The notes: generated from the sequence alone by a model not told the origin. Shown: positions 3,191-40,326, counted from the stretch's first letter. The stretch is DNA of 40,772 nt from Lentisphaeria bacterium (GCA_041690595.1 JAWLHB010000060.1:1-40772); one strand, 5' to 3'. Translations and numbers: made by a program.

Positions 3191-3247
3191 GGTGTTCACC
3201 TTTCCTAAGTCTGATTGAAACGACTGTTTGAGAACTGACTCACCCTA

Positions 3248-6422: not shown

Positions 6423-6577
6423 GGAATAAGCTGCGTTTTGGTGCAGTGGCGCGGGGAGAAAAGGATACTCATGCAATCTGATGCCTGTACATTGCAATGA
6501 AACAGCGATTTGCTTAGCAGAGAAACGATGTGTCCCAGTTAGCAGATACCAGTCTGGGTGATGAGGTCAGAGCGCAG

Positions 6578-9500: not shown

Positions 9501-9664
9501 AGGGCGGTTTCTCGGAGTGGTCGAGCGGCTCGCTGACCTTTGGCAACACAGACAATCTCGAGCTGCCTTGGGCGGGACGGATCGAATGCGCGGCGGTGTA
9601 TGCGCGTGAATTCAGCGCCGCGGAGGCAGCCGAGCGCTTCCGCAAGTACAGCGGGGCTCGGTGA
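6578..9664 (+). CDS. Membrane-anchored Hanks-type Ser/Thr kinase with N-terminal Zn ribbon and C-terminal LamG/ConA-like domain
   Basis: CPTC…CPKC; GSGSMG, VAIK, HRDIKPSN, DVG and YMSPEQ motifs; TM WLLPLLAAVIGLGLIGAVVF; Pro-rich linker and helical region; LamG-like HLLLT…KLYVDG…W.GRI..AAVY. Alternative start GTG 6530. Confidence 0.9.
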   Translation: MEPKFRCPTCRSKMRADQQLSGQEVACPKCSTLVMVPKVSYSAGDVIAGFRLESWIGSGSMGEVYKARQLSMDREVAIKLLRPDMLEDAEHIDRFNSEVRTLAKLDHPNIVTAFEAGQYEHHYFLAMSFVNGYNLDECLLERERLEEHEVLSIAIKVARALAYAWNRFQILHRDIKPSNIMIDSDGEVKLTDVGIAMHVGEDLEATQSGFVVGTPFYMSPEQAGGKESLDFRADMFSLGSTMYHLMVGLPPYDGDTPMEIMLKVINEPAPDPRQFNPEISEAAAGIIRKMMAKQRDERYATWEEMIDAAQRVVSGEPAHPPKTGRSRKKKLKAQVPPISSSVPLEPPPRSATHWLLPLLAAVIGLGLIGAVVFQIVRSASDPAEVVPPAPRVERPVVQPPVERAIERPVPPPAVEKPERPLAAYSKAFDTAMRLADQSPTDYTANIERFEAVAREAAGTPVETRARRQIAEERKELEQMLEIRRKELRQEAQQLIERDGISEAIKWMTDYDGPLATELFGWRQEEIKRYRKLLQEAAQRERSTRVATQSKLDELVGRMANHLVAGNVADAQQEVATAADDPAFAPLLDEVKAMEELIGGIRNWQAVVLDTFRGQIGQEVQVRLKRSTEKVTIKEVESSRVKGLKVVDQGKLGVSFSLAELDYEELHRRLVHAEDPAARLALGLLSLRSREVDRAAELFNTMPAPLSLALLRALHAQEPEPVEAMAEKELKAVYGAAGLPAESTPIALYATLMENPPAKELRDRLREPVNAFLHAYDFTGIARGHRPILETLSARRSAADSWPFDRQGLVFIWGPGMNVLHDVTTGYWRQTQVEARGGAAMGENNALILPGGEGICEAKDAGELLLTACQRTNQLTVEVVLHLASVDVGSDSPDQRSTGAIAAFGGGRGSNFLIGQRGQQIGVRLDTDNDSGLFEHRTSAFKGTTEKPIHLLLTHRDGATKLYVDGRKMIDVQGWKGGFSEWSSGSLTFGNTDNLELPWAGRIECAAVYAREFSAAEAAERFRKYSGAR

Positions 9665-13525: not shown

Positions 13526-15985
13526 TCAAGGGGCAGAATCAAAGCTCCAGCCATCCTTACTCTGGCGGAGCAGCCAGGAATGGAGGCGGAAGGGGGCTAC
13601 GGTACCGAGCGGAAAGCGACGATCGCCCCAGGTGAATTCTCCGGTCAACGGTTGCGACGTGCGGTTTTGGAGGCGAATCTCCCAGCCGTCCTTGTCGTCG
13701 GCCGGGGTCATGGCGAGCAGCTCCAGACCGTCACTGAGCGCGGCAAGGGAGCCTCGGCGAGGCAGGCCCCCGGGACTGGGCCACGTGTGCAGCACAACGG
13801 GTGGCTGCGCCAAGATTGCGGCAATGCCGGTCAGCGCATCGACGTCGGCGGTAAGGCAGCAGCGGAAGCGGAGCAGGCCCGCATCGGTGGTTGGCCGCCA
13901 GGGCAATTCATGCGCCTCGTGCGTATCGGTGGTGGCAAAGCCGGAGGCGCGCGCGATGGAGGCACGAAGAGCGCCATCCTTGACATCGAAGCCATAGATG
14001 GCGTTGCTGGCGAAGCCGAAAGGGGTCGGCCCCATGCACTTCACCCAGCGTCCACCAGGCACTTCGCGTCCATCGCACGGGCGCTCGGCGACGGCACCGG
14101 GAACGTCGTAGATTGCCGATTCGGCGCCGCACGGCATGACCATCTTGAGGCGGGCGGCGCGCTCATTCCAGAGCAGCCGCGCTTCGATATCGACCACCTC
14201 CCTGCCACGATACAGGTGGACGGTAAGCTCGATCCAGGAGTTGCCCCCGGTAAGGCGGGTCCAGAGGGTGGCCCGTAGCGGCCCGGCATCGACAACCCGC
14301 GCGTCGCTTACGCGCCATTCATGGCGAACGTTCGACAGATCGAAGGAGGCAGGATCTTCCTGCATCTCTCCCCATGAACCGTAGGGATCCTCCACCGTGA
14401 TGAACGAGAGGCCGGGGGCACCCAGCAGCGGCTCCCCTGCCCGATCGATCTGGACACCATAGCCGCCAGGCCGGGCCGTGACGTCGAGAGAACCATTGCC
14501 AATCCGGCCTTGATCGCCGATGGCCGGCCCGGAGACGGACGGATTCTCGGCACCCTCGACATAGCCGACATCGTAGACGGCCCAGCCGAGTGCCGGAAGA
14601 TCGGCCTCGATGACCGTGCGTACGCGCCATGGATAGGTCGGCAGCATGCGGTTCTCAGGGTGTACACACTGATGCGCCACCGGCCGGCCATCCGGTCCGC
14701 GCACCTCGACGGGAAGCTCGTCGGGCCGATCCCGATAGGTAAAGATCGGGCGATAATCGAGATGCGTCTCGATCTCGATGGGGCCTCGCCAGCGGAAGGG
14801 GTGGGGATTGAAGAGCAGCCGGGGAACGCGGGCCGGCATGTCACCATCCGGAGCGGGAACGGTGGTGTCGACACGTTCAGCCAGGGCATTGAGGGCGGCC
14901 AGTTCGGTTTCCTGGGCGGTGAAGGCAACGCGCCCGAGCTGGGCCAGTTGCGCATCGATGGCGGATTCGATGCTGCTGCCGGGGAGGATGTCATGGAAGG
15001 CGTTGAAGAGCAGGTCGCGCCATGGCCCCTCCAACGGCGCCGGCTGCCGCGCCAGCGTGGCGGCAAGGGCGCTGTCGATGGTCTCCGCCTGCCCCAGAGC
15101 GGCTTCAGCGCGGCGGTAGGCAAACTTGAGATTGGCGCACGAGACGTAGCAGCCGCGAAGGCAGAAGTTGATCTCACCGCGATGCACGGGCAGAGCATCC
15201 TCTCCCATCGTCGCCAGATCCTCGCGCATGGCGTCGAATACCCGATGCATGCCGGAGAAGGTGACAGTGACCTCGGGATGCGCCTGGCGCCAGCTCATCA
15301 CCGCTTCGATCTGAGCGCGCGAGCTTCCGCCGCCATGATTGCCGAGGCCGAAGAAGAAGGGGATGTGCCGGATCCCCCAGTCACCCGCGGCGGCCAGATA
15401 CTGGTCGAGCAGCTCACCAACTCCCGTGCGTTCGGAGCCATACCACCCAATGGGAATGCGCCAGGCAAGGAGGCGCGACCCACCGGGGCCTTCCCACCAG
15501 AAGAGGGGCTTGCCAATGGGCGCCAAGGCTTCGGATGGTCGGCTGAAGGCGATCCCCGTCATGCCCGCGGCGGCATAAATCTCCGGGAGACCGGCACTGT
15601 GCCCGAAGGAGTCGGCGGTCCAGACGATGCGAGGACGCTGCCGCAGATTTTCCTGGAACCATCGCAGACCGATGCGGAATTGGCGCAGAAAACTTTCGGT
15701 TGCCGGCATATTTGTGTCGGGCTGCAGCCAGGACCCGCCAACCACATCCCAGCGCCCATCGGCGATGCGTTGGCAAATGCGCTCGAAGGTGGCTGGATCG
15801 TGGCGACGAATGTGGTCATAGATGACGGCTTCGCCGCGAATGAAGCTCAAATCTTCATACTCATCCATCAGATCGAGCATGGTGCGACACGTGACAATGC
15901 CTTCATTCAACCCTTCCCGCCAATCCCATAACCAGACCGGATCGAGATGCGCATTGGGCAGCAGATGGAATGTCAGATCCGGCAT
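13526..15985 (-). CDS. Glycoside hydrolase family 38 alpha-mannosidase
   Basis: NAHLDPVWLW, VGGSWLQPDTNMP..ES, DSFGH nucleophile motif, GNHGGG and FHDILPGSSI; GAAAGGA RBS before ATG 15985. Confidence 0.92.
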   Translation of the reverse strand: MPDLTFHLLPNAHLDPVWLWDWREGLNEGIVTCRTMLDLMDEYEDLSFIRGEAVIYDHIRRHDPATFERICQRIADGRWDVVGGSWLQPDTNMPATESFLRQFRIGLRWFQENLRQRPRIVWTADSFGHSAGLPEIYAAAGMTGIAFSRPSEALAPIGKPLFWWEGPGGSRLLAWRIPIGWYGSERTGVGELLDQYLAAAGDWGIRHIPFFFGLGNHGGGSSRAQIEAVMSWRQAHPEVTVTFSGMHRVFDAMREDLATMGEDALPVHRGEINFCLRGCYVSCANLKFAYRRAEAALGQAETIDSALAATLARQPAPLEGPWRDLLFNAFHDILPGSSIESAIDAQLAQLGRVAFTAQETELAALNALAERVDTTVPAPDGDMPARVPRLLFNPHPFRWRGPIEIETHLDYRPIFTYRDRPDELPVEVRGPDGRPVAHQCVHPENRMLPTYPWRVRTVIEADLPALGWAVYDVGYVEGAENPSVSGPAIGDQGRIGNGSLDVTARPGGYGVQIDRAGEPLLGAPGLSFITVEDPYGSWGEMQEDPASFDLSNVRHEWRVSDARVVDAGPLRATLWTRLTGGNSWIELTVHLYRGREVVDIEARLLWNERAARLKMVMPCGAESAIYDVPGAVAERPCDGREVPGGRWVKCMGPTPFGFASNAIYGFDVKDGALRASIARASGFATTDTHEAHELPWRPTTDAGLLRFRCCLTADVDALTGIAAILAQPPVVLHTWPSPGGLPRRGSLAALSDGLELLAMTPADDKDGWEIRLQNRTSQPLTGEFTWGDRRFPLGTVAPFRLHSWLLRQSKDGWSFDSAP

Positions 15986-16098
15986 TTGAAGCATCCTTTC
16001 CACAAGAGGAGTTGGCATTCGAGGGCGAGAGATTGTATCAATACCACAGAAGCCACTGTTTTGCCATATGCCACCAGATGATTCCAGGAGTCCCAGCC

Positions 16099-17652
16099 AT
16101 GACCGTCCCCGAGTACCGTTTCGACAACCGCCCGCTGCGCGACTGGCTGCTGGAGCTTGTGGATGAGAATACCGACGTGCGGCGTGATGCCGGTGTGGCG
16201 CTCGCTGCCATGCAGTTTGGCTTGACGTCTTCCGACGAAGATTTCGAGAACGTGCAGATGGATCTGGATGCACCCGAGGAATTTGCCGCGGCCATTCGCG
16301 CGGTAGCCGCGGAGCCGGATTTCCCCAGGGAGGAGTGGATCGGCAAACTGGTTGCCTACATGCGCGATGTCCAGCAGGACTGGATGACCTTCGCGGCCGA
16401 GCATTGGCAACAGCGCCAACTGGAGGAAGAAGACGAGGGGCTCCTGCACTTTCCCACGGATGTCGGCCTGTCAAAGGATGAACGTGCCGAGGCGCGCCGT
16501 TACGAAGCACTGCGCGAGATGGCCTTTGAACAGGAGACGCCGGACTTGGAGCATGAGGCGCTTACCTTTGCCCACGTCATGGCACGAACCGTTTTTCAGG
16601 CACTCGACGATGTCCTGCTCGAAAACGAAAAAGCCTTACGGTCGATGCTGCAGTGGGCAGAAGGTGCCACGGAGGCGCTGAACGCCCTGGCGCGGATCGG
16701 GCCGGAGGCCGCCGATTTCGTCCCCGAGTTGATGGAACGGTTGGATAATCCCGAAGGCGGGCTCGATCTTGCGCTCGCCGAAGCGCTGGCCGCCATCTGC
16801 GGTGATGATCCCGAGCTGATCCACGCGCTCCTCGACCGGCTCCATGCGCCGCATCCTCAGGTGCGCCAGACTGCCGCCGCCACGCTCGGCTTCATGGAGC
16901 CCGCGGCGGATGCGGAGATCCCCCGCATCACCGAAGCACTGCTCAAGGCGACTCATGACGAGGACGAGGACGTGATGTCGGAAGCCATCTGGGCACTGGG
17001 AAGCGTCGCCGCGCCCGATGAGCGCATCCATGCCCGCGTCTATGCCCTGTCGCAGCATCCCTCTGCATGGGTCCAGGCGGCCTCCATCGATGTTCTGGGC
17101 GACTTGGCCATGAAGCCTGAACAAACCGTGCCTCGCCTCATCGATGCGCTCGATACCTTCGAAGAGCCGGACGACGACATGGAAGACTATGAGCGCGTCT
17201 GCAATGCCCTCATGCAATTCCCGCCGGAACTGATCGCCGCCCAGGGACTCCCCCTGTTGATCGACCTGCTCTGGGATGAGGACGAATATCTCTCCCTCGA
17301 TATCGTCGACCTGCTCGGCTACCTCGGACCTCTGGCCAAAGAGGCACTCCCGGAACTCCTCGCCGCCGAAGGTTGGCTCACCGCCGCCGCGGATTTCCTA
17401 GAGGACGAAGAGGACATTGACGAGGAAGAGATCGAAGGCCTTGACGAGGATGTCGCGTTTGACTGGGTGGAAGACGACGACGACTGGATAGAGGACGAAG
17501 AGGATGAGGGCGAAGACTGGATAGAAGACGAAGACGAAGACGAAGACGTTGGAGAAGAAGCAGTAGCGGAAGAGGAATGGGACGAGGACGACTCGCTACA
17601 GAGGACCCGCGCCGCCATTGCCAGGATCGAGGGCTGGCCCGAAAACCCGTGA
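16099..17652 (+). CDS. HEAT/PBS-lyase repeat protein with very acidic C-terminal tract
   Basis: Repeats such as VRQTAAATLG, VMSEAIWALG, VQAASIDVLG and LGYLGPLAKEALPEL; AGGAG RBS; Asp/Glu tract at about 17400-17590. Confidence 0.8.
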   Translation: MTVPEYRFDNRPLRDWLLELVDENTDVRRDAGVALAAMQFGLTSSDEDFENVQMDLDAPEEFAAAIRAVAAEPDFPREEWIGKLVAYMRDVQQDWMTFAAEHWQQRQLEEEDEGLLHFPTDVGLSKDERAEARRYEALREMAFEQETPDLEHEALTFAHVMARTVFQALDDVLLENEKALRSMLQWAEGATEALNALARIGPEAADFVPELMERLDNPEGGLDLALAEALAAICGDDPELIHALLDRLHAPHPQVRQTAAATLGFMEPAADAEIPRITEALLKATHDEDEDVMSEAIWALGSVAAPDERIHARVYALSQHPSAWVQAASIDVLGDLAMKPEQTVPRLIDALDTFEEPDDDMEDYERVCNALMQFPPELIAAQGLPLLIDLLWDEDEYLSLDIVDLLGYLGPLAKEALPELLAAEGWLTAAADFLEDEEDIDEEEIEGLDEDVAFDWVEDDDDWIEDEEDEGEDWIEDEDEDEDVGEEAVAEEEWDEDDSLQRTRAAIARIEGWPENP

Positions 17653-17670: not shown

Positions 17671-19977
17671 TCAATACTTGCCAAACTCATCGTCATCCAG
17701 CGAGATGATATCCGACGGACGGACGACCTGATCGTCAGGCTCTGCCCTGACGTTGAGTCTGCGTCCTTCGACAAGGCCGGGAACTTGGCGTCGATCGTCA
17801 CCGCGGGAGATGCGGGGACCACGATGGGCGAGCTGGTTCTCGCGCAGGCGAAAGCGGGAGAGCATGTTACGCAGATCGGCGGCCTGGCTGGCCAGTTCCT
17901 CGGCCGCGGAAGCAGTCTCTTCGGCGCTCGCCATGTTCTGCTGCGTGACACCATCGATCTGGTGCAGCCCCGCATTGACCTGAGCAACGCCTTGAGCCTG
18001 CTCTTCCGAGGCGGCGGCGATCTCACTCACCAGGTCGGAGACTTTGGTGATGCTGGTGACGATATCCTCCAGAGCCTGCGCGCTCTGCTGGGCAATCTCC
18101 ATCCCATTGCCGACACGATCGGCGGAGCTTTCAACCAGCTCGGCGGTTTCACGCGCGGCCTTGGCACTGCGGCCCGCAAGGTTGCGAACCTCTTCCGCCA
18201 CAACCGCAAATCCCTTGCCATGGCGCCCGGCACGAGCGGCCTCGACCGCGGCATTGAGCGCCAGGAGATTCGTCTGGAAGGCAATATCGTCGATGACCTT
18301 GATGATCTTGCTGATGCGCGCGCTGGCGGTCTGAATCTCCTCCATCGCGTGAAGCATCTTCTGCATCTGCTTGTTGCCGCCTTCCGCGCAGGTGCGGGCG
18401 CCGTCGGAGAGCTGACTGGCCTGAGTGGCATTTTCGGCGTTAGACTTGGTCTGAGAGCCGATCTGGGTGGTGCTGCTGGTGATCTCCTGGAGTGAGGCGG
18501 CCTGTTCGGTGGCGCCTTGGGAGAGGGATTGGCTGGAGTCGGAGACCTGCCGCGAGCCGTTGGAAACAGCCTCGCCGACATCTTGAATGCGCGCCAGAAC
18601 GCTGGCGAGTTGGGCCGCCATGTTGCGGAGGGCTTTGCCGAAGATGTCGTGGTCAGAGGAGACGGGGATGTCGCGCGTGAGGTCACCGTCCGCCATGGCA
18701 TTGGCAATGGCGATGCGTGTCTGCTGCATCTCGATCATCTCGCGCAGGGCCGCGGCCATCTGCCCGACTTCGTCACTGCCCGAGACGGTGATACTGTGTG
18801 AAAAGTCGCCGTGGGCCATCTCCTTCACGAGGCGGGTCATGTTGGTGATCGGGCTGGCGATGGTTCGCGCAAGGATGAGGCCAAGCAGTACGGCGAGGAG
18901 GATGGTCACGAAAAGGGCGCCCAGCACCCAAGTGAAGGTGCGGTCGAAGGCAGCGTTGATCGAGGCGGCCGTTCCGCTGGTTTCCTGCACGCTGGAAAGG
19001 ACACCGACAACCCAATCCCACGGCGCAAACCAGACTCCGGAAGCAATCATCGGCTGCTCATTCTCTTCAGCACTCAGCCGCTGCACGCTCACAATACTTC
19101 CACCCGGTGTATTGAGCTGCTTGATCAGGCCCAGCTCCGCCCCAGTGAGCGAAGCGCCATGACCATAGGGACGTGGCGGCAACGCATCGTCCACGATACT
19201 CGCCTGGCGCTTGACGAAGAGAAAGCCGTCCGGCACGGCTATCTGGTGCAGGGCGGCTTCGATGACCTCCAGGCGGTCAGCGGCATCGATGGTGACTTCG
19301 AGCATGCCCTGGAGCTTGCCGTCGGCGCCATACAAGCCACGGATGGCCGCGAAGAAAGCCGTACCGCTGAGCAGGCGTCGCCCCACCCAGCTCTCCTGGG
19401 ACTCCTTGATTTGGCTCAGGATCTCCTGGTCGGCCGCGGCACTGGGGCCGCCATCACGCATCAGGACGCTGATGTGGCGCTGGCCGTCAACGTTCACGTG
19501 GGTAGTGGCGACGCGCAGCATATTACCTTCGAGCGTCGCCTGGTAGAGGGAGCAATCGGCGCCGGTCACCTCCCGTACGCGATCGACCAGGATGGCCGGG
19601 CGGTCGAAGTCGCGGAGGGGCTGGAGAACGATGTCGCCGATCCGCAGCCGGGGCAACGGGTACTGCTTCTCCTTGAGGACCCAGTCGGTCCATCCTCCAT
19701 CGGGGTCCTGGCGCAAGCCTCCGAGCGCCTCCAGTTCCTGCAGCGCCACCCGCAGCTTGATCCGCAATTCCTCTTCGATGGCAACATGTTCACTCGCGCA
19801 CAAAGACTGAACATTGCGAACGATCGATTCATTGAAATCGCGGGCATAGCTGGTCTGTGCTCCCTCGACCTCCTCGCTGAGGTTGCTCACCTGCACGACA
19901 ACGCAGGTCACGATCACCGCGGCTGAAAAAAGCACGCTTCCCACCAAGGCCACCATGATCTTTGCCCACAGTCTCAT
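17671..19977 (-). CDS. Methyl-accepting chemotaxis protein (Cache-type sensor, HAMP, MA domain)
   Basis: Two TM helices flank a Cache-like region (MLRVATT…WFAPWDWVVG); HAMP (DEVGQM); tip IAFQTNLLALNAAVEAARAG.HGKGFAVVAEEVR; C-terminal EFGKY. Confidence 0.96.
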   Translation of the reverse strand: MRLWAKIMVALVGSVLFSAAVIVTCVVVQVSNLSEEVEGAQTSYARDFNESIVRNVQSLCASEHVAIEEELRIKLRVALQELEALGGLRQDPDGGWTDWVLKEKQYPLPRLRIGDIVLQPLRDFDRPAILVDRVREVTGADCSLYQATLEGNMLRVATTHVNVDGQRHISVLMRDGGPSAAADQEILSQIKESQESWVGRRLLSGTAFFAAIRGLYGADGKLQGMLEVTIDAADRLEVIEAALHQIAVPDGFLFVKRQASIVDDALPPRPYGHGASLTGAELGLIKQLNTPGGSIVSVQRLSAEENEQPMIASGVWFAPWDWVVGVLSSVQETSGTAASINAAFDRTFTWVLGALFVTILLAVLLGLILARTIASPITNMTRLVKEMAHGDFSHSITVSGSDEVGQMAAALREMIEMQQTRIAIANAMADGDLTRDIPVSSDHDIFGKALRNMAAQLASVLARIQDVGEAVSNGSRQVSDSSQSLSQGATEQAASLQEITSSTTQIGSQTKSNAENATQASQLSDGARTCAEGGNKQMQKMLHAMEEIQTASARISKIIKVIDDIAFQTNLLALNAAVEAARAGRHGKGFAVVAEEVRNLAGRSAKAARETAELVESSADRVGNGMEIAQQSAQALEDIVTSITKVSDLVSEIAAASEEQAQGVAQVNAGLHQIDGVTQQNMASAEETASAAEELASQAADLRNMLSRFRLRENQLAHRGPRISRGDDRRQVPGLVEGRRLNVRAEPDDQVVRPSDIISLDDDEFGKY

Positions 19978-20519
19978 GCTTCGTCCCTTTTTGTTATGGC
20001 ATCCGGGCTCACCTGCGCCAGGTGCTCCACGTCGTCTCCAAAGACCAGTTCATCGGCGCTCAAGAGGAGCTTGACGCCGTCATCGGCCCGCCCTACCCCG
20101 TAAAGGCAGCGAGCGGTCGGTCCGCGCGACAAGCGCGGCGCCGGCGAGATCTCCGTCGGAAAGATCGTGACAACATCGTCCACCTGATCGACGATCAGCC
20201 CGATCGACATACCCCGCAATTCCGTGACGATGACGCAGGTGCGTTCATCATAGGGGCGTTCGGCCAGGTTGAAGCGGCGGTGCAGATCGATAACCGGCAG
20301 CACCTGCCCGCGCAGGTTGATCACCCCCCGTACATAAGCGGGCAGATCCGGCACTTCGGTGATGGGCTGCAGCACGACGATCTCGAGCACGTGGCGGATT
20401 TCAATGCCATAGGCATCGCTGTCGAGAGAAAAGGTGAGATAGCGATCGCTGAGAAGATCCTCGTCTTCCTCGTCGGGCTGGTCGGCATCTGGCCAGTAAT
20501 GTCGGTGTGGATCGTCCAT
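19974..20519 (-). CDS. cheW: Chemotaxis coupling protein CheW
   Basis: YLTFSL….YGIEI..V.EI, ITEVP..P.YV.GVINLRG.VLPVIDL and GLIVD.V motifs; ATGA overlap with the MCP. Confidence 0.95.
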   Translation of the reverse strand: MDDPHRHYWPDADQPDEEDEDLLSDRYLTFSLDSDAYGIEIRHVLEIVVLQPITEVPDLPAYVRGVINLRGQVLPVIDLHRRFNLAERPYDERTCVIVTELRGMSIGLIVDQVDDVVTIFPTEISPAPRLSRGPTARCLYGVGRADDGVKLLLSADELVFGDDVEHLAQVSPDAITKRDEA

Positions 20520-20554
20520 GACTGCAGCTCGTTCCGGGGTTGCCGTTGCGCTTC

Positions 20555-20583
20555 AATGTACAGCGCGGGAGCACCATCGTCTA
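20555..20583 (-). promoter_or_regulatory. Possible internal sigma70 promoter for cheW-mcp
   Basis: Minus strand TAGACG-N17-TACATT in the 89-bp Hpt-cheW gap. Confidence 0.3.
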
Positions 20584-20608
20584 CCCGTACGGAAGCATCG
20601 GCAAAGCG

Positions 20609-20920
20609 CTACTGGTAGTAGATCTGCACTTCAGTCAGGTAGCGATAGAGCTCGTTGATCCAGTAGAGGACATAGTCGCCGTTCTGCTCGCCGGCGGAGG
20701 CCTCGATCTCGCGGCCGATATCGGTGATCTCGTCGAAACCATAACCGCCGCCAATGCCCTTGAGCGTGTGGCCAATGCCGCGGATAGCCTCGAAGTCATT
20801 CGTTTCCAGGGCGCGGACGATCTTCTGAATGTCCTTGTGCCGATTGGCGAAGAAATCTGGGACCAGCTCTTCCAGTTCACTATCGACATAGGCGATGTAC
20901 TCGCGTGGCGTTTCAGACAT
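20609..20920 (-). CDS. Stand-alone histidine phosphotransfer (Hpt) protein
   Basis: DFEAIRGIGHTLKGIGGGYGF…IE Hpt motif (H-x-LKG); AGGAG RBS; 103 aa. Confidence 0.88.
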   Translation of the reverse strand: MSETPREYIAYVDSELEELVPDFFANRHKDIQKIVRALETNDFEAIRGIGHTLKGIGGGYGFDEITDIGREIEASAGEQNGDYVLYWINELYRYLTEVQIYYQ

Positions 20921-20937
20921 CGTGGTTACTCCTGTCG

Positions 20938-21690
20938 TTAAACATCTTCCGCCGACACGCTGGAGGAATTCGCGGCGGAATCGGTCTGGAAATACGCCGT
21001 AAACATTTCTTCGATCTCTTCCAGAGAGTCCGACTCGACGCTGATCGCGGTAATCGAAGCGAAACAATCCAGCTTGGTCAGTGCATTGAGGCTGGCGTCG
21101 CGGGTGGTCACCTGCGAGAGGCGGCGCGATATGTGTTCGTTGACGACGTTGATATCGTCATAGATCCTGACCAGATTCCGCAGTTGCCAGTCGGGCTGTC
21201 CGCCCCGGCGATTGACAAAGAACTGGGCGAGAAGATAAGTGCTGATGGCCCGGGCGATGGTCTCCTGCTTGGAGGCAAAGGGAAGATGGGTGTGCGCCAT
21301 CGGCCGCAGGCGGTCCAGATAGGGACAGCCGCTGGTCACCATGATGAGGCCGATCATCGAGCTGAGCCCCTGGGCGAGCGGAGCCCGATGCCCGTAGCTG
21401 CGGTTGTGCGTCCGGATCACAATCTCCACCTCGTCGGTAGCCACGCCATCTTTGAAGGTGTCCACCACCTCCACGAGGTTCGCGGCCAGCGGGCAGCGGG
21501 GACTGGACGCGGCATTCAGGGGGCAGTGCGGGCACTTCTCATGATCCAGCGCGGTCCACGCGGGCAAGTCGTCCTGCCGATGATTGGCCAGCGTGAGGCC
21601 GGGGGTGCTCAGCTCCAGATCGAACTGCAGGCATTCGCCATTGCTGAGGAAGAAGCGGTAGTGAATCTGTCTGGAATCCCGCGTCGGCAC
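20938..21690 (-). CDS. Cys-rich conserved hypothetical protein (DUF6901-like)
   Basis: PAWTAL…KCPHCPL…CPLA, QGLSSMIGLIMVTSGCP, PMAHTHLPFA and DASLNA…LDCF; GTG 21690 with GGAGAG RBS. Family assignment is from recall, not a search. Confidence 0.65.
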   Translation of the reverse strand: MPTRDSRQIHYRFFLSNGECLQFDLELSTPGLTLANHRQDDLPAWTALDHEKCPHCPLNAASSPRCPLAANLVEVVDTFKDGVATDEVEIVIRTHNRSYGHRAPLAQGLSSMIGLIMVTSGCPYLDRLRPMAHTHLPFASKQETIARAISTYLLAQFFVNRRGGQPDWQLRNLVRIYDDINVVNEHISRRLSQVTTRDASLNALTKLDCFASITAISVESDSLEEIEEMFTAYFQTDSAANSSSVSAEDV

Positions 21691-21703
21691 GGCACTCTCC
21701 ACG

Positions 21704-23785
21704 TCAGGCTTTGGACCGTTTGTACACGGCTCGCACACGCGCGGGCAATGTCTTGCGGTTGAAGGGCTTGCGGACAAAATCGTTGGCGCCTGTCTCCAGG
21801 CTGCTGATCTCCGCATCTTCCGTGGCATCGGCGGTCAGGACGATGACCGGAATGTGTGCCGTCTTCGGATTCTCACGGATCTTACGGCAAAGGGTGATGC
21901 CGTCACATTTGGGCATGTTCACGTCGGTGATAACCACATCGGGCGGGTTCGCGAAGATCATGCTCAGAGCGGCCTCGCCGTCCGAGGCGGCGTAGACACG
22001 CGCCTTGAGCGGACGAAGCGCCATCTCGATGAGGGTCTGGATCTCGGGGTCGTCATCGGCGATGAGGATCGTCTGCGGCGTGTCGCCATGGACATGCTCG
22101 ACGACGGAACGCGGGACGTGCCTGGCCATCTCTTCCAGGGTGGTGACGCCCTGCGCCACAAGCGTGAGGCCGGTCTCCCACATGGTCCGCATGCCGGATT
22201 TGCGCGCGGAGTCGAGGACTTCGTTGGTACTGGCGCCTTCGACGATCTGGGAGCGAATGTGGTCGTCGATCACCAGCAGCTCTGTCACCGCAATTCGGCC
22301 GCTGAAGCCGCTGTTGTAGCATTTCTCGCAACCAGCGCCGCGCGAGAGGGAGTATTGCACTTCCGTGCCGAGCACCGAGAGGGCGCGTTCTTCGTCCGGG
22401 CTGGGGACGACCTGGTAGGCGCATTCGCGGCAGATGCGGCGGGAGAGGCGCTGCGCCAGCACGGCGGAGAGAGAGGAGGCGATGTTATAGGGCTCGATGC
22501 CGATGTTGATCAGCCGGGTGATGGCGGAGACCGCATCGTTGGTATGGAGGGTCGAGAAGACCATGTGCCCCGTCTGCGCCGCCTGAATGCAGGTCTTGGC
22601 CGTCTCCGGGTCGCGGATCTCACCCACATAAACGACATCGGGATCCTGGCGCAGGATGGCACGCAGCGCTCCCGCGAAGGTCATCCCCTGCTTCTCGTTC
22701 ACGCCGATCTGGTTGACGCCCGGAATCTTGTACTCGATCGGATCTTCCACCGAGACGATGTTGGTCACTTCCGACTTGATGGAATTGATGATCGAGCAGA
22801 GCGTCGAACTCTTGCCGGATCCAGTCGGTCCGGTGACGATGGCAAAACCCTGCGGCGACTTGGCCAGCGCGACCAGACGCTGGGCGATGTCGGGCAACAA
22901 GCCGATCTCGGAGAGCTGGACGCTTCCTCGGTTCGGATAGAGGAAGCGGATCACGATCTTTTCCCCAAAGGGCGTGGGAATCGAAGAGACACGCAGGTCG
23001 CACTGCTGTTTCTTGGTCTTGACGGTGAGACTGCCGTCCTGCGGACGCCGCTTCTCGGCGATGTCCATCTTGGCGAGAATCTTCAGGCGGCCGATAACCG
23101 GGATACCGGTGGAGAATGGCAGCTCACATACGATGTGGAGTTCACCGTCGACGCGGTCGCGGATGTAGACCTTGTCGCGGCGAGGCTCGACGTGCATGTC
23201 GGAAGCGCTGCGATAAATGGCATTCTTGAGCAGTCGGTTGGCAATCTTGATGGCGGCATTTTCAGCCTCGATATCGTCGAACTGCAGGAAGTCCTCGGCC
23301 TGGTATTCCTCTTCCTCGTGGTGCTCTTCCTCGTGAGTGACCTCGAGATCGCCGGAGCCGAGATCGCCGCCGAGGATGTCATGCAGCGTCTCGATGATCT
23401 GGCGCCGTCGGGCCAGACGCTCGATCACCTGCCGGTCGGTGGCGAAGGCAATATCGTCGATGACGAAGATGTCACCCGGGCATGCGGTGGCGATTTCAAT
23501 GGTCTCGCTGTCGCAGGCGAGCGGGATGACCACGTGTTTCTTGAGGACCCACGGAAGCACAAGGCGAACGGCAAAGATGGAAGGGATCTTGATATTCAGG
23601 TCGACATACGGAATGTCGAGCATCTTGGAGACGTTGCCGTAGATCTGGTGCTCACTGGCGAAACCGAGCTTCTCCAGAGCCTCCTCGATGAAGAGGTCAG
23701 GATAGGTGGTCTCGGCCATCTCGAGCTGCACCTCGTCAACGACCTGGGAGTCCAGAATATACTGCCTGAATAGTTCTTCGTTCAT
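21704..23785 (-). CDS. PilB/GspE-family traffic ATPase with C-terminal response-regulator receiver domain
   Basis: ASDMHVEP, RVDG, DIAEKRRPQDG, Walker A GPTGSGKS, EDPIE, LRQDPDVVYVGEIRD, GHMVFSTLH, CxxC…CxxC; then REC: ILIADDD…VITDVNMP..DG…VLTA…FVRKPF. Confidence 0.93.
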   Translation of the reverse strand: MNEELFRQYILDSQVVDEVQLEMAETTYPDLFIEEALEKLGFASEHQIYGNVSKMLDIPYVDLNIKIPSIFAVRLVLPWVLKKHVVIPLACDSETIEIATACPGDIFVIDDIAFATDRQVIERLARRRQIIETLHDILGGDLGSGDLEVTHEEEHHEEEEYQAEDFLQFDDIEAENAAIKIANRLLKNAIYRSASDMHVEPRRDKVYIRDRVDGELHIVCELPFSTGIPVIGRLKILAKMDIAEKRRPQDGSLTVKTKKQQCDLRVSSIPTPFGEKIVIRFLYPNRGSVQLSEIGLLPDIAQRLVALAKSPQGFAIVTGPTGSGKSSTLCSIINSIKSEVTNIVSVEDPIEYKIPGVNQIGVNEKQGMTFAGALRAILRQDPDVVYVGEIRDPETAKTCIQAAQTGHMVFSTLHTNDAVSAITRLINIGIEPYNIASSLSAVLAQRLSRRICRECAYQVVPSPDEERALSVLGTEVQYSLSRGAGCEKCYNSGFSGRIAVTELLVIDDHIRSQIVEGASTNEVLDSARKSGMRTMWETGLTLVAQGVTTLEEMARHVPRSVVEHVHGDTPQTILIADDDPEIQTLIEMALRPLKARVYAASDGEAALSMIFANPPDVVITDVNMPKCDGITLCRKIRENPKTAHIPVIVLTADATEDAEISSLETGANDFVRKPFNRKTLPARVRAVYKRSKA

Positions 23786-23800
23786 AACAGCCGGCAAGCT

Positions 23801-24763
23801 CTACTTGCAGAAGTCTTTGGGGTCGAAGGGGTCTTTGCCGATGTACTGTCGGAAAGCCCCCCGGATGTAGCGCGCATTGTCTGGAGTGATACGCAGAAAG
23901 TGCTTGTCCACGAGTGCATCCAGATTTGCATCGTCCGGCACGGAATCCCGCCTATTATAGGTGCCCTTGGAAACGAAGGCAAGGTCAACTTCCCCACTCT
24001 CGACCATATCCAGATACTCCGTCAGCCGCGAGTCGATCGTGAAGACGGCAAGAAAGTAATTGCGGTCGCGTCGGCCAGGCTGAGTGCGAATCGCGCCGGG
24101 ATCGTAATTGGCCAGGCAGATCACCAGTTGCACCTCGCCCGCGGAGCGCAGAATGTCGCGCAGATCCTGAGCACGTAGTGAATGATCGGCCCCCTCCTTC
24201 GAGCGCTCCGAGACCAAGTCCACGCTCGCTCGCACCGCCTTGATCTCGAAATTGTTGGCGCGCGTGAGCACCTCACGCAAGGCAATGATTTCGCTTGGAT
24301 CCTTGATCTTCTCCTTCTCCGCGCCCTCGGCCCGTTCGCGCGCCGCCTCGGCACTCTGCAACTGGCGATAAAGCATCGGCGGCAGCACCAGCAGCACGGG
24401 AGTCCTCTTTTCCTTGAAAAGCTGGTTCGCCGTCAGCACTTCGCTCATGTGCCGTAAGGCGACATGCTCATAGCTGTTGGAACCGTCCGAGGAGGATGCT
24501 TCATGAAAGAAGATGAAATAGAAGACCAGAATGACCGTCAGGCCGATGGCGAGCGTCATGGGCAGCTTGGTCGGCGCCTGAGAGTAATCCCTCTCGCCAT
24601 GGTCGTCCTCATCCAGGGAAAGCACATCTTCCTGGTTCCCATGGCCGCCCACGCCACGCCCCTGGTGATACAACCGCTGTTGATGCTTCTTCAGCATCCA
24701 CTGATAGTGAATCAAGGTGCCGATCGTCGCCAGAATGGCGGCAATGATGATATAGATGAACAT
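23801..24763 (-). CDS. Hypothetical membrane protein (2 TM + soluble domain)
   Basis: AAGGAG RBS; TMs MFIYIIIAAILATIGTLI and LAIGLTVILVFYFIFF; C-terminus (…GEVDLAFV…FLRITPDN) loosely resembles type I periplasmic binding proteins. Confidence 0.7.
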   Translation of the reverse strand: MFIYIIIAAILATIGTLIHYQWMLKKHQQRLYHQGRGVGGHGNQEDVLSLDEDDHGERDYSQAPTKLPMTLAIGLTVILVFYFIFFHEASSSDGSNSYEHVALRHMSEVLTANQLFKEKRTPVLLVLPPMLYRQLQSAEAARERAEGAEKEKIKDPSEIIALREVLTRANNFEIKAVRASVDLVSERSKEGADHSLRAQDLRDILRSAGEVQLVICLANYDPGAIRTQPGRRDRNYFLAVFTIDSRLTEYLDMVESGEVDLAFVSKGTYNRRDSVPDDANLDALVDKHFLRITPDNARYIRGAFRQYIGKDPFDPKDFCK

Positions 24764-24986
24764 GACCCCACTCCTTCTCTCGCCAGCAACCAGCCAGCCC
24801 CCTGAACCGCCCGCGCTTACCCGTACAGCCTCGAAGCCACCAGTCTGCCAATTGAAAAACCGCACGGAAAGGTAATGCAAAGCGGCTCCAATACAAGTCA
24901 TGGAAATCTTCCGCTGCCAGACGGCGCTTGAAAAGGCCTGTCGATGATCGTATTCTTTCTCCATTGTACCTTCACCGCGGTTCCTT

Positions 24987-25709
24987 ATGCGCATCTCTCC
25001 AACTTCATCTCGCCATCACCCCTTCTCGCTGGTGGAACTGCTGCTCACCATGGCCGTGGTGTTGGTCCTCTTTGCCATCTCGATTCCCACCATTCGCGGC
25101 ACTCTCCGCGCCAACAAGGTAAATGTGGCTGCCAGCACCGTGGCCCAGGAGCTGCGTCTTGCCCGTGCCCGTGCCGTCACCAGCGGCCGCCACGTCGCCC
25201 TCCTCATACCGACCGCCGAGCACAGCGACGCCGGCGGCTTCAGCGCCCCCATGTACAAGGCCAGCGCCATTCGCGCTTGCTACCTCACCGGCTCGCCCAT
25301 CACCAGGACGGATGCCTACGGCTCATGGTACGAAGGCACTTTCGATAACTATATCGAGGGTACCAGCTGGACCTTTCTGCCAGCCGGCACCTACGTGGGT
25401 TACACCGAATCCTTCGGCCCCTTCAGCAAGCAGTCCGTCGAATACTCCCGGCGAAGCTGCAACGTCGTCAGCGGCGTGCTCTTTCCCAACGTCTCCAGTC
25501 CTCTGGCCCCGATCACCAATGTGCGCGCCATCGTCTTCACCCCCACGGGGACCATTCTGCCCGCGCCGAAGACCGGCTCTCACACTCGCTTCTGGGTCGT
25601 CGAAGGGGTCATCAAGTCCGGTACAGATGAGCTTCTCCACGATCCCTACAACTTCGTCGGTGCCGAAATCAATCGCTTCACCGGCAAGTTCCGCTTCGTC
25701 ACCGACTGA
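24987..25709 (+). CDS. Prepilin-type N-methylation domain protein (GspH/FimT-like pseudopilin)
   Basis: Short leader, then FSLVELLLTMAVVLVLFAISIP with E5; L..ARARAV, IVFTPTG and EINRFTG, typical of GspH/FimT. Confidence 0.85.
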   Translation: MRISPTSSRHHPFSLVELLLTMAVVLVLFAISIPTIRGTLRANKVNVAASTVAQELRLARARAVTSGRHVALLIPTAEHSDAGGFSAPMYKASAIRACYLTGSPITRTDAYGSWYEGTFDNYIEGTSWTFLPAGTYVGYTESFGPFSKQSVEYSRRSCNVVSGVLFPNVSSPLAPITNVRAIVFTPTGTILPAPKTGSHTRFWVVEGVIKSGTDELLHDPYNFVGAEINRFTGKFRFVTD

Positions 25710-25861: not shown

Positions 25862-26560
25862 ATGAGCACACTCGCCACTACGACCGTTGGGAATCTTGTA
25901 CGTCGCGCCCCGGCCCGCGCCAGAGTCTTCGAACAGTACGGCATCGACTACTGCTGCGGCGGCAAACAGCCGCTGGCGGACGCCTGCCGGGCGAAGGATC
26001 TGGCGCTGGAAGAGATCCTTGCCCAGTTGGAGCAGGTAGACGCGCAGGCATCCGGCACCGCCGATCCCGACAGCATGTCCATGACCGAGCTTTGCGACCA
26101 TATCGAGGCCACCCATCACCAGTGGCTGCGGCGGGAACTCCCCCGCCTCGACGGCCTGCTGGCGAAGGTGCAGCGGGCTCACGGTGATCGCCACGCCTGG
26201 CTGGCGCCCCTGCGGCAGACCTTCGATGCACTGGTCGACGAGCTGACGCCGCACATGGCCAAGGAGGAGCAGGTGCTCTTCCCGATGCTGCGGGCGATGG
26301 AAGCGGGTGACGCGCATGCCGGCTCGCATTGCGGCGGTATCCAGAACCCAATCAGCGTGATGGAGTTCGAACACGACAACGCCGGCAACGCGCTGGCCCG
26401 CATGCACGAACTCACCAACGGCTACGTGCCTCCGGCCGAAGCGTGCAACACCTTCCGGGCGTTGCTCTCCACCCTCGCGGAACTCGAACTGGATCTTCAC
26501 ACGCACATTCACAAAGAGAACAACATTCTCTTCCCGAAGGCCATCCAGGCCGCGGGCTGA
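25862..26560 (+). CDS. ric: Iron-sulfur cluster repair di-iron protein (Ric/YtfE/ScdA)
   Basis: VF..YGIDYCCGG, HIEATHH, HMAKEE.VLFP, PISVM..EH and LHTHIHKENNILFP motifs. Confidence 0.96.
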   Translation: MSTLATTTVGNLVRRAPARARVFEQYGIDYCCGGKQPLADACRAKDLALEEILAQLEQVDAQASGTADPDSMSMTELCDHIEATHHQWLRRELPRLDGLLAKVQRAHGDRHAWLAPLRQTFDALVDELTPHMAKEEQVLFPMLRAMEAGDAHAGSHCGGIQNPISVMEFEHDNAGNALARMHELTNGYVPPAEACNTFRALLSTLAELELDLHTHIHKENNILFPKAIQAAG

Positions 26561-39024: not shown

Positions 39025-40326
39025 ATGAGATTCCCACGCTTCAAGACGGTCTCGCGGTGGCTCCTTCCAGTTGCCATGTTGTTCATGGTTATCGGTTCAA
39101 ATCGGTCGGACAGAGTTGACCCGGAGATTCCGGGTATCAGCCAGCGAGTCAACGATTTCACCATCGATCTCCTGAAACATCAGGCGAAGAGCGAAGACTT
39201 TCCCACAAACTCCATATTCTCCCCTCAAAGCATCTTCCACGGCTTGGCCATGAGCTACATCGCCAGCGATCAGGATACACGAGAGGAGCTGCGGCAGGTC
39301 CTTCACTTTCCGGAGCAGAACCAAGAGCTGCTCAAGGATCTCGCTGACCTGCGAAAGCAATTGCACCAGGCCGACAGCAAGCGAATCGAGATGACGATGG
39401 CCAATTCCGTTTGGCTCGACAATACCCACGCGGATTTTCGAGATGAATACGTGGATCAGGTGCAGGACGCCTTTGGCGCTTCCCTTCATCAGGTCACCTT
39501 TGCGCACAAGCAGCGCGTCAGTGACGACATCAACAAGTGGGTGTCGCAAGCGACTCGCGGCAAGATACAGAAGAGCGTCGCCCCAAGTGACTTCGAGCCT
39601 CGGAGCCAGCTTGGCATCGTTGACGAACCGGCTCTCGTCACGGTAAATGCCGTCTACTTCAAGTCGGACTGGAGCAGCCGCTTCGACAAAGCCTCGACCC
39701 AGGACCGGATCTTCCATACCGGTAAGGCAACCACGGTGGAAACTCCGATGATGCACCAGCAATCTTTGCTGCCCTACTTCGAGAATGACCACCTCAAGTT
39801 CCTTGAGCTACCCTATGTAGACAACCACTATTCCATGTATCTCATCTTGCCCAGGGAGATCGTCGACATCCGGCAGCTGATACAGACCATCACAAGCAAC
39901 CAGATCGTTGAAATGCGGCAACGGGCCTACCGGCACAAAGTAGATGTTCTCCTGCCGAAGTTCGAACTGAGGACTCATCTCGGCGTAAAGGACGCTCTCT
40001 CCGCAATGGGCGTGCGTGCGGCCTTCAGCAACCGGAATGCCGATTTCGACAAGATGATAATCAAGAAGAATGACGCGTTTCGCATCCATATCTCGCAGAT
40101 CTATCACGATGCCTGGATCGATGTACACGAAGACGGAACCAAAGCAGCGGCAGCAACATCGACAGGGCATTTCTCTTTCGGTTGCAGTGCCGCGCCGCTG
40201 CCGATGTCGGTGCACTTTCATGCCGATCATCCCTTCCTCTTCATGATCGTCCACAACGGCAGCCGCAGTATTCTCTTTGCGGGATGGATATCCAACCCAG
40301 AGAACTCGCACCCACCCGACAAGTGA
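39025..40326 (+). CDS. Secreted serpin (serine protease inhibitor)
   Basis: N.IFSP.SI, ANSVW, INKWV…T.GKI, NAVYFK..W…F, LPKF, hinge EDGTKAAAAT and serpin signature FHADHPFLFMI; N-terminal signal-like segment. Confidence 0.95.
   Translation: MRFPRFKTVSRWLLPVAMLFMVIGSNRSDRVDPEIPGISQRVNDFTIDLLKHQAKSEDFPTNSIFSPQSIFHGLAMSYIASDQDTREELRQVLHFPEQNQELLKDLADLRKQLHQADSKRIEMTMANSVWLDNTHADFRDEYVDQVQDAFGASLHQVTFAHKQRVSDDINKWVSQATRGKIQKSVAPSDFEPRSQLGIVDEPALVTVNAVYFKSDWSSRFDKASTQDRIFHTGKATTVETPMMHQQSLLPYFENDHLKFLELPYVDNHYSMYLILPREIVDIRQLIQTITSNQIVEMRQRAYRHKVDVLLPKFELRTHLGVKDALSAMGVRAAFSNRNADFDKMIIKKNDAFRIHISQIYHDAWIDVHEDGTKAAAATSTGHFSFGCSAAPLPMSVHFHADHPFLFMIVHNGSRSILFAGWISNPENSHPPDK

Follow-up and report, generated by a model that had tools for sequence, protein, structure and literature searches.

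Assembly ATPases of the PilB/PilF and GspE type (PF00437; PDB 6f8l, 5tsg, 3jc8, 4pht) share an MshEN-like N-terminus and a T2SSE core with Walker A/B motifs, Asp and His boxes and a tetracysteine motif, and few cases are known in which a receiver directly affects the pilus extension motor. In Xanthomonas, both PilB and PilT are bound by DrdR, which stimulates their ATPase activity (PMC13507683); in the Tax1 system of Synechocystis, phosphorylated PixG binds PilB1 (PMC11181946). As for PilG and PilH of the Pseudomonas Pil-Chp system, no interaction with PilB had been reported in P. aeruginosa according to a 2024 review (PMC11656802). All these regulators place the extension ATPase under the control of a receiver domain, but as separate proteins acting in trans; PixG and PilG/PilH are fed by CheA-type kinases. 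Regarding receivers joined to the ATPase in one polypeptide, the architecture REC-MshEN-T2SSE was catalogued in 2016 for Gmet_3473 of Geobacter metallireducens, without a reference (PMC5013675 Supplementary Table 4), and the order MshEN-T2SSE-REC is not in that table. A literature search found no paper with the tag Gmet_3473, no study of the N- or C-terminal REC form and no description of the C-terminal fusion.

The locus described here encodes this second form, with the receiver at the C-terminus and not, as in Gmet_3473, at the N-terminus. The window, that is, the whole stretch of DNA analysed, is the entire 40,772-bp contig C60, and the locus consists of six genes on the minus strand plus a divergent one on the plus strand (Table 1). 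An earlier note on this DNA had described the same seven genes, and the recomputed coordinates agree with it, giving intergenic distances of 15, 13, 17, 89 and -4 bp from the membrane protein through the MCP; genome-trained codon scores were positive for 8/8 genes scored. Its statement that the window holds no cheA, histidine kinase, pilC/gspF or secretin was also confirmed, as none of the 32 window ORFs matched cheA, HisKA/HATPase, pilC or secretin in a profile scan; a second scan agreed for cheA, HisKA/HATPase and pilC, using a local profile set without secretins. A Ser/Thr kinase is present in the window (6530-9664), and elsewhere the genome has two CheA, about seven PilC genes, seven other PilB/GspE and five full-length secretin matches. 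The description "novel system" was an overstatement, given that the fusion is a large family and the reverse architecture was already listed, and "kinase-less" applies to the window and not to the system, for which loci L027, L028 and L030 have histidine kinases no more than two genes from the fusion.

Table 1. Features of the locus, numbered from the first nucleotide of the window
Feature	Position	Strand	Match or remark
MCP: Cache3-Cache2, HAMP, MCPsignal, EFGKY-type tail	17671..19977	-	Pfam
CheW	19974..20519	-	Pfam E 5e-36
Weak sigma-28-like -10 element, 6 of 8	20595..20602	-	in 89-bp hpt-cheW gap, no matching -35
Stand-alone Hpt, 103 aa, proposed phosphodonor to ATPase receiver	20609..20920	-	Pfam PF01627 33.1 bits, cut-off 24.6
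Hpt phospho-site His51	20768-20770	-	
DUF6901 protein, 250 aa, possible metal site	20938..21690	-	Pfam E 2e-74
MshEN-T2SSE-REC fusion, 693 aa, system core	21704..23785	-	Pfam: T2SSE E 9e-120, Response_reg E 7e-29
C-terminal receiver domain, about aa 573-685	21731..22069	-	PF00072 E 7e-29
Predicted phospho-acceptor Asp621	21923-21925	-	
Conserved membrane partner, 320 aa, two predicted transmembrane helices	23801..24763	-	no Pfam or NCBIfam family
Acidic motif D-V-L-S-L-D-E-D-D, residues 46-54, predicted cytoplasmic loop of partner	24602..24628	-	
Prepilin-like gene	24987..25709	+	GspH 22.9 bits, cut-off 21; Verru_Chthon cassette protein D 41.7 bits

The fusion has the complete set of motor residues, namely Walker A K325, Asp-box E347, Walker B E389, His-box H414 and the zinc tetracysteine motif C452/455/486/489, and its T2SSE domain scored 400 bits against a cut-off of 24.9. 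Among solved structures it is closest to PilF/PilB, which match residues about 35-556, and all 12 solved relatives listed leave the extra C-terminal receiver uncovered. That domain is likewise intact (D577, D578, D621, T651 and K673), and in 7/8 members of the clade it follows the end of the ATPase profile after a spacer of just 17-20 aa. The key residues of both domains are conserved across the 66 fusions compared: the Walker A/B, Asp-box and His-box residues are kept in 65, the remaining one being truncated, and the receiver Asp, Thr/Ser and Lys in 65 each; the four zinc cysteines are conserved as well. Scores for the canonical NCBIfam families are under the cut-offs, with 500 against 675.65 for PilB (TIGR02538) and 481.5 against 630.25 for GspE (TIGR02533). 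The MshEN motif that binds c-di-GMP, RLGxx(L)(V/I)xxG...LxxxLxxQ (PMC5013675), is absent in its RLG-type form from the window protein and the three full-length clade members, and is present in 6/66 fusions, all six deltaproteobacterial; given this degenerate motif, the receiver is proposed to take the place of c-di-GMP control. On balance, the protein reads from its sequence as a response regulator with a PilB/GspE-type assembly ATPase as its output, that is, an accessory motor that would be switched by phosphorylation. Such a natural fusion makes response-regulator control of the motor a one-protein question, and it would reveal the position that a receiver needs in order to gate a motor of the PilB type.

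MshEN-T2SSE-REC proteins form a subfamily of their own within PilB/GspE, with members in six sampled phyla and in 45/81 sampled Gemmatimonadota genomes. In the tree, a single branch (SH-aLRT 96) separates them from canonical PilB/GspE, with the rooting unsettled; a first FastTree run rooted on PilT made them paraphyletic with weak support. Therefore, the contrast between fusions and plain ATPases amounts to one evolutionary comparison. The neighbourhoods of 66 fusion loci were compared with those of 86 plain PilB/GspE loci; 29 of the former are from Gemmatimonadota, and this kinship inflates the counts, so that p-values computed for the comparison are too strong. A profile scan of genome contigs found at least two intact fusions among the 80 loci listed, and this set was therefore used as control. 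Within two genes, any two-component gene occurred in 37/66 fusion loci against 10/86 plain ones, any Hpt-domain gene in 15/66 (four phyla) against 0/86, a stand-alone Hpt in 10/66 (one of the ten, in L176, having no Pfam match) against 0/86, and a hybrid kinase in 11/66 against 0/86. The Hpt neighbours are spread over several branches of the fusion tree; in L161, L184 and L199 the fusion has a complete HK-REC-REC-Hpt gene next to it, and in L200 an HK-REC-Hpt gene. It should be noted that at this distance an Hpt gene is absent from 51/66 fusion loci and a two-component gene of any kind from 29/66. The survey of T2SSE+Response_reg fusions that the earlier note had proposed supports a link with Hpt genes, and not with cheW/MCP, or with DUF6901 beyond the closest relatives. 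This widespread, unstudied family probably lets signalling switch a motor directly.

The same neighbourhoods differ in their pilus genes: pilC lies within two genes of the ATPase in 3/66 fusion loci and 56/86 plain loci, and pilT in none of the fusion loci and 22/86 plain ones. Because pilC is lacking in 63/66 loci and pilT in all, a role in pili depends on action in trans, and these counts are consistent with a reading, possible though doubtful, in which the fusion no longer belongs to the pilus machine and works instead in signalling, as an ATPase or scaffold whose ATP-driven contact with something other than the pilus, for example the membrane partner, is gated by phosphorylation. The separate position on the tree, the scores below both NCBIfam cut-offs and the seven other PilB/GspE of the genome fit this reading, as does a reported signalling role for M. 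xanthus PilB (PMC5544727). However, orphan placement is not rare among plain ATPases either (30/86 have no pilC at that distance), several fusions have pilin-like genes in their vicinity (L026, L027, L030, L057 and L164), and in three Omnitrophota loci the fusion immediately precedes pilC; in one of them, L190, Pfam confirms T2SSF plus a GspG-like pilin. The subfamily can thus serve as an operon motor, with the three loci, being near-identical, counted as one event.

As for the phosphodonor, multistep His-Asp-His-Asp phosphorelays pass through stand-alone Hpts such as LuxU, HptB and ShpA. The window Hpt resembles these in its conserved His, invariant in nine aligned Hpts, and in the many hybrid kinases encoded elsewhere in the genome, where local profiles counted about 39 hybrid kinases without an Hpt and three stand-alone Hpts; the terminal output differs, being a motor ATPase here and a DNA-binding, c-di-GMP or partner-switching domain there. 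The fusion's likely donor is the Hpt of such a hybrid-kinase relay, in contrast to the CheA-fed PixG and PilG/PilH. In the explanation to which somewhat more than even weight is given as a whole, a hybrid histidine kinase without its own Hpt, encoded elsewhere, would autophosphorylate and pass the phosphate by His-Asp transfer to His51 of the stand-alone Hpt, which would then phosphorylate Asp621 of the ATPase receiver; this may alter the activity of the ATPase hexamer or the way it docks onto a PilC platform whose gene lies elsewhere, and the motor would thereby assemble a subset of the many pilin-like proteins in the cell. The frequency of Hpt genes near fusions supports such a relay, and together with the intact His51 and receiver it lends support to the transfer from Hpt to ATPase receiver suggested by the earlier note; the link to CheW-MCP that the note also made was not supported.

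Linkage of the Hpt varies among relatives. Orthologues 76-77% identical to it occupy the same position in L031 and L034, the DUF6901-Hpt pair being retained in these two relatives, whose identity to the window protein is about 88-90%; in L032 (90% identical) neither gene is directly behind the fusion, on a short contig, and only 3/8 loci of the clade have a linked Hpt. Outside the clade, neighbouring Hpts are of differing types, with 15-38% identity to the window Hpt. It is conceivable, if rather unlikely, that a classical kinase phosphorylates the receiver directly and that Hpt and DUF6901 joined the locus late and by chance, or that the receiver is a phosphate sink draining the Hpt. Kinases lie within two genes in 21/66 fusion loci, L027 and L028 have a PAS-PAS kinase without receiver at this distance and no Hpt nearby, and DUF6901, tried as a general partner of the fusion, was rejected: it is unlinked in G007, G012 and G014, and in 8/8 deltaproteobacterial DUF6901 loci the surrounding 1.5 kb or so contain neither a fusion nor an Hpt. 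Against this, Hpts 33-41% identical to that of the window recur immediately behind the fusion in the Elusimicrobiota loci L178 and L179, the DUF6901-Hpt pair persists in the two relatives, and the gaps of 13 and 17 bp between fusion, DUF6901 and Hpt suggest a single transcript. The DUF6901 protein itself has the invariant residues C53/C56/C66/C122/H135, and its structure model (pLDDT 93) gave no Foldseek match at E <= 0.001, with a best VIA Z of 5.0; a literature search found no paper using the term DUF6901.

The chemotaxis genes downstream look incidental to the fusion. CheW or an MCP lies within three genes in 3/66 fusion loci, window included, and downstream of the ATPase in 0/6 of the closest loci with readable sequence there (L026, L027, L028, L030, L031 and L034); in L031 and L034 unrelated genes come after DUF6901 and Hpt, and all MCP and CheW matches in G007, G012 and G014 are on contigs other than that of the fusion. 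Flagellin and FliM are encoded in the genome, along with a cheA-W-R-D-Y-X-B-X-Y cluster on C15, with whose CheW the window CheW is 36% identical, and the signalling domain of the window MCP is co-linear with those of the three other orphan MCPs of the genome (45-54% identity). Loading an Hpt by His-Asp-His relay requires a receiver on the kinase, and both CheAs of the genome are Hpt-Hpt-dimer-HATPase-CheW proteins without one, so they cannot load the Hpt by this canonical route; a CheA with a C-terminal receiver, which in the Tfp/ACF class (Pil-Chp, Tax, Wsp type) is encoded together with CheW and MCP, is absent from the genome. Regarding promoters, sigma-70 and terminator scans were at chance (2 vs 1.9 and 6 vs 5.0), and both full sigma-28 elements are carried by the flagellin promoter on C19. 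Most likely, CheW and MCP are an orphan pair that would serve the flagellar che pathway and not part of a conserved module. The chemoreceptor wiring of the earlier note, an MCP and CheW array with a CheA encoded elsewhere acting on the pilus ATPase without a separate CheY, is therefore improbable, even with the co-orientation of the genes, the absence of a terminator-like site from the 89-bp hpt-cheW gap, the presence of a second, orphan CheA (C46) alongside an operon without kinase, and the cheW-cheW-mcp-cheA(REC)-cheB clusters that adjoin the fusion in deltaproteobacterial L167 (co-oriented) and L169 (divergent), to whose MCPs that of the window is only 24-26% identical in the signalling domain.

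On the other side of the fusion, the membrane protein is directly upstream in the window, L026, L027, L029 and L033, and 8 kb off in L028. Hydropathy and the positive-inside pattern predict a cytoplasmic loop of roughly 45 aa; the acidic motif in it was matched by 17/21 close-family proteins against 1/86 distant-family ones, for which a slightly stricter pattern was used, and its D51 is at least 90% conserved. Homologues numbered two in a word-based search and 108 in a HMMER scan, and the profile found nothing under E 0.49 among PDB sequences. In the structure model (pLDDT 84.5), residues about 90-306 resemble the C-terminal lobe of type-1 periplasmic binding proteins, with LuxP the best match (Z 11.9, rmsd 4.1, 164 aligned) in a list filled with sugar-binding proteins. 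With respect to LuxP, the ribose- and arabinose-binding proteins and XylFII, the partner shares this lobe fold, but is single-lobed (about 150-165 residues), 6-16% identical and anchored by two transmembrane helices, and the two-lobed ligand cleft cannot be assumed for it; it defines an unannotated family with a single such lobe, new here. With the same confidence as the phosphorelay, and jointly with it, the protein is taken as a dedicated partner of the fusion in this lineage, most simply a tether or sensor, with the half-binding-protein domain in the periplasm and the acidic motif inside; a complex prediction of the ATPase-REC with loop residues 24-68 scored 0.02, which counts neither for nor against such a contact. 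More speculatively, and with little confidence, MshEN-T2SSE-REC may be an ancient multi-phylum class of response regulators with mechanical output, through which phosphorelays switch an alternative motor at the pilus/T2SS platform, the partner, gained in this lineage as a transmembrane sensor, docking the ATPase via its acidic motif and integrating a periplasmic cue to choose among about 200 pilin-like proteins. Distant homologues of the partner at 15 loci (L130-L144) have no fixed neighbour gene; the one in L130 sits four genes from pilC-pilT-pilB-pilB, and two, in L136 and on contig C33 of the same genome, are divergent from pilin-D-like genes.

Finally, the link of the divergent pilin to the fusion system, of which the earlier note had made it a part, is uncertain: L033, a relative with 92% identity, does not keep it upstream, and with about 200 prepilin-like genes in the genome the chance of one lying within two genes of any gene is 12%. 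Its best NCBIfam match, Verru_Chthon cassette protein D (TIGR02596), is below the cut-off of 70 bits, and it stands alone, without the D-B-C-A gene set and followed by a hemerythrin/ScdA gene; its closest homologue (35%) is in L026, where it belongs to a pilin cassette close to the fusion.

Regarding the ATPase of the locus, Pfam assigned the 693-aa window protein the architecture MshEN-T2SSE-Response_reg, and it scored under both the PilB and the GspE equivalog cut-offs; it genuinely belongs to a subfamily of receiver-fused PilB/GspE proteins that is widespread and, it seems, unstudied. Among the Atlas clusters with this architecture, the largest has 3005 members. The family was searched with a 33-row profile, a match being counted if it reached the receiver end, and a few best candidates per genome were scored, which makes the genome counts lower bounds: at least 45/81 in Gemmatimonadota, 8/81 in Elusimicrobiota, 6/121 in Omnitrophota, 6/201 in Acidobacteriota and 9/151 in the deltaproteobacterial phylum sample (a second draw gave nearly the same genomes plus one), and, nearer the host, at least 2/351 in its phylum and 3/301 in its class. 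The phyla are named here after the titles given to the centre loci.

The 66 fusion loci compared comprised 29 from Gemmatimonadota (part of about 53 matches in that phylum), 10 deltaproteobacterial, 8 from the clade of closest relatives, 7 from Elusimicrobiota and 6 each from Acidobacteriota and Omnitrophota; L173 and L182 were excluded, not being single ATPase-REC frames. Of the 66 fusions, 65 have intact residues in Walker A/B, the Asp box and the His box, the remaining one being truncated; on the receiver side, Asp, Thr/Ser and Lys are each kept in 65. The RLG-type c-di-GMP motif, as defined in PMC5013675, occurs in six fusions and was not found in the window protein. A quick IQ-TREE tree of the ATPase core only, built on 84 of 156 rows without PilT, the long-branch controls L041-L043 or the contig-truncated control L106, had one branch splitting 36 fusions from 48 plain PilB/GspE proteins (SH-aLRT 96), and a fuller FastTree run did not fix the root position; from this unrooted tree, a single origin of the fusion appears likely.

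As for precedents, the available part of PMC5013675 lists REC-MshEN-T2SSE (Gmet_3473), with the receiver N-terminal whereas that of the window fusion is C-terminal, and does not list MshEN-T2SSE-REC; in the available part of PMC11656802, the words "receiver" and "fused" do not occur. A separate tandem-receiver protein stimulates PilB and PilT (PMC13507683), and phospho-PixG binds PilB1 (PMC11181946). No description of the C-terminal fusion was found in the open literature searched, and a catalogue mention may exist.

The neighbourhoods of the 66 fusions were compared with those of 86 plain PilB/GspE loci, by our own gene calls and local profiles with Pfam spot checks. Within two genes, any two-component gene was found at 37/66 fusion versus 10/86 plain loci, a histidine kinase at 21 versus 5, a hybrid kinase at 11 versus 0, any Hpt-domain gene at 15 versus 0, a stand-alone Hpt at 10 versus 0, pilC at 3 versus 56 and pilT at 0 versus 22, while cheW or MCP genes lay within three genes at 3 versus 0; these counts are descriptive, because related loci do not count as independent and all fusions probably belong to one clade. 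Pfam confirmed seven of these ten stand-alone Hpts; two others share 76-77% identity with the window Hpt, and that of L176 was recognized by local profile only. The Hpt neighbours come from four phyla and several tree branches and are of differing types, and a full relay is encoded beside the fusion in L161, L162, L184, L188, L199 and L200; against the Hpt link, an Hpt gene is missing from the vicinity of the fusion in 51/66 loci, and most neighbours in the main Gemmatimonadota locus are housekeeping genes. In L162, KaiC and KaiB genes adjoin the Hpt-fusion-hybrid kinase block. A platform gene accompanies the fusion in just three of the loci, all Omnitrophota and near-identical (L190, L191, L194), where a REC gene precedes the fusion, pilC and a GspG-like pilin gene in one orientation; this fusion-pilC-pilin order is the best sign that members of the subfamily can act as real motors.

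In the proposed mechanism, signals would run from a hybrid kinase through an Hpt to the receiver of the PilB/GspE-type ATPase, the fusion being the phosphorelay end point, and for the window fusion this is the most likely reading, held with slightly better than even confidence. The earlier description of the system as kinase-less holds for the locus and fails for the cell, whose genome (8.1 Mb, 97% complete, the window being its entire contig C60) encodes about 39 hybrid kinases without Hpt, by our own gene calls and local profiles, and two CheAs. It also encodes, beyond the window, two more stand-alone Hpts, three more DUF6901 proteins, seven other PilB/GspE, about seven PilC, five full secretin matches, flagellin and FliM; the genome as a whole has 16 REC-Ser/Thr kinase genes (local profiles). 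Its Verru_Chthon-like pilin cassettes, together with Atlas hits to Verrucomicrobiota, point to a Lentisphaeria-like host within the PVC group.

The earlier note had also joined cheW and mcp to the relay. The seven genes it described, six on the minus strand and a divergent one for a pilin-like protein, are indeed present, with the gaps it gave (15, 13, 17, 89 and -4 bp), but a conserved six-gene chemosensory system is contradicted by the relatives, whose order does not keep cheW-mcp, an outcome that the note itself had named as refuting: fusion, DUF6901 and Hpt follow one another in L031 and L034 (88-90% identical) and lead into deiminase or cNMP-binding genes, with no cheW. One host CheA lies inside a full cheA-W-R-D-Y-X-B-X-Y cluster; the second carries a pair of Hpt domains, and the 20 kb around it contain no further che gene. 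In the established His-Asp-His-Asp chemistry, CheA needs a receiver to load an Hpt; both host CheAs lack one and thus could not load the Hpt directly, although direct transfer from CheA to the predicted Asp621 is possible. The simplest reading is that cheW-mcp is an orphan pair serving flagellar chemotaxis: the signalling region of the window MCP is 45-54% identical to the host's three other orphan MCPs, and identity to the MCPs of the L167 and L169 clusters is 24-26%. A scan of the 89-bp hpt-cheW gap found no terminator-like site and a single, weak sigma-28-like -10 element. The loci in which a receiver-fused motor is most credibly a target of chemosensory control are the deltaproteobacterial L167 (genome G524) and L169 (G517), where the fusion adjoins a cheW-cheW-mcp-cheA(REC)-cheB cluster.

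The clade comprises twelve proteins (at least 50% identity), with loci from genomes G007, G012 (two copies) and G014 (split across two contigs) and four metagenome contigs. In L032 neither DUF6901 nor Hpt follows the fusion; indirect evidence suggests DUF6901 on the same contigs as three more clade proteins. Remoter members have PAS, hybrid or Ser/Thr kinases beside the fusion instead: a PAS-PAS histidine kinase and a Ser/Thr kinase-HEAT protein recur near it in L026, L027 and L028, with a REC-Ser/Thr kinase also beside it in L027 and L028. In G007, G012 and G014, every MCP, CheW, DUF6901 and Hpt match lies on contigs other than the fusion's; a divergent DUF6901 subtype recurs in all three. 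The DUF6901 model had no clear match among solved folds.

The membrane partner, which has no Pfam family, is lineage-specific. Upstream sequence exists for five of the relatives' loci; the partner gene lies immediately before the fusion in four of these and 8 kb off in the fifth. Among 41 related genomes close profile matches occur only in the four carrying a clade fusion, a result partly circular since the profile was built from them. HMMER gave 21 close full-length relatives (six being query rows; genomic context covers 6/21) and about 86 distant ones. The model (pLDDT 84.5) aligns with one lobe, the C-terminal one, of type-1 periplasmic binding proteins: LuxP is the best match (Z 11.9, rmsd 4.1, 164 aligned), and about fifty such proteins come next. 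From its hydropathy and the basic residues that follow helix 1, the loop (about 40-48 residues in the close family) is predicted to be cytoplasmic and the C-terminal domain periplasmic. An acidic loop motif occurs in 17/21 close versus 1/86 distant proteins, and suggests a putative docking site for the ATPase, because it is conserved although the rest of the cytoplasmic loop varies, and because this family accompanies the ATPase. The partner's motif (VLSLDEDD) has a look-alike in the MCP tail (IISLDDD before EFGKY), which may be chance.

The divergent pilin is Verru_Chthon D/GspH-like, with a sub-threshold score. The host has about 200 prepilin-like genes, 12% of genes having one within two genes, and in L033 this pilin is not upstream. 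Mild support for a link to the fusion comes from the nearest homologue, found in a pilin cassette beside the L026 fusion, and from distant membrane-family genes divergent from pilin-D-like genes on host contig C33 and in L136. Further features are collected in the table; the VIT-vWA and rhomboid-domain pair resembles a rhombosortase module.

Coordinates of the window genes and of further features (G, genome, G000 being the host; C, contig; L, compared locus)
Feature	Location	Strand	Remark
VIT-vWA protein, then rhomboid-domain gene	window 522-3199		
HEAT-repeat protein	window 15970-17652		long acidic tail; convergent with MCP, gap 18 bp
MCP	window 17671-19977	-	
MCP tail	window 17674-17715		
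CheW	window 19974-20519	-	
Hpt	window 20609-20920	-	
DUF6901	window 20938-21690	-	
MshEN-T2SSE-REC fusion	window 21704-23785	-	
Membrane partner	window 23801-24763	-	
Partner loop motif	window 24602-24628		
Pilin-like gene	window 24987-25709	+	
ScdA_N-hemerythrin gene	window 25862-26560		iron-centre repair type; behind pilin
Serpin gene	window 39025-40326		close to contig end
Second CheA (L012)	G000:C46:9079-11229		
Three further DUF6901 copies	G000:C25:43264-44763 and C13:155109-155927		two in tandem behind AAA ATPase
Verru_Chthon-like four-gene pilin cassette	G000:C33:4207-11507		divergent from distant paralogue of membrane partner
Verru_Chthon-like four-gene pilin cassette	G000:C11:176354-180901		
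Fusion with che cluster	L167:10904-18033		
KaiC and KaiB genes	L162:11225-13274		Gemmatimonadota
Platform-motor fusion, 1047 aa	L135:9007-12150 (G009:C35)		two T2SSF (PilC) then two T2SSE domains; directly upstream of distant membrane-partner homologue
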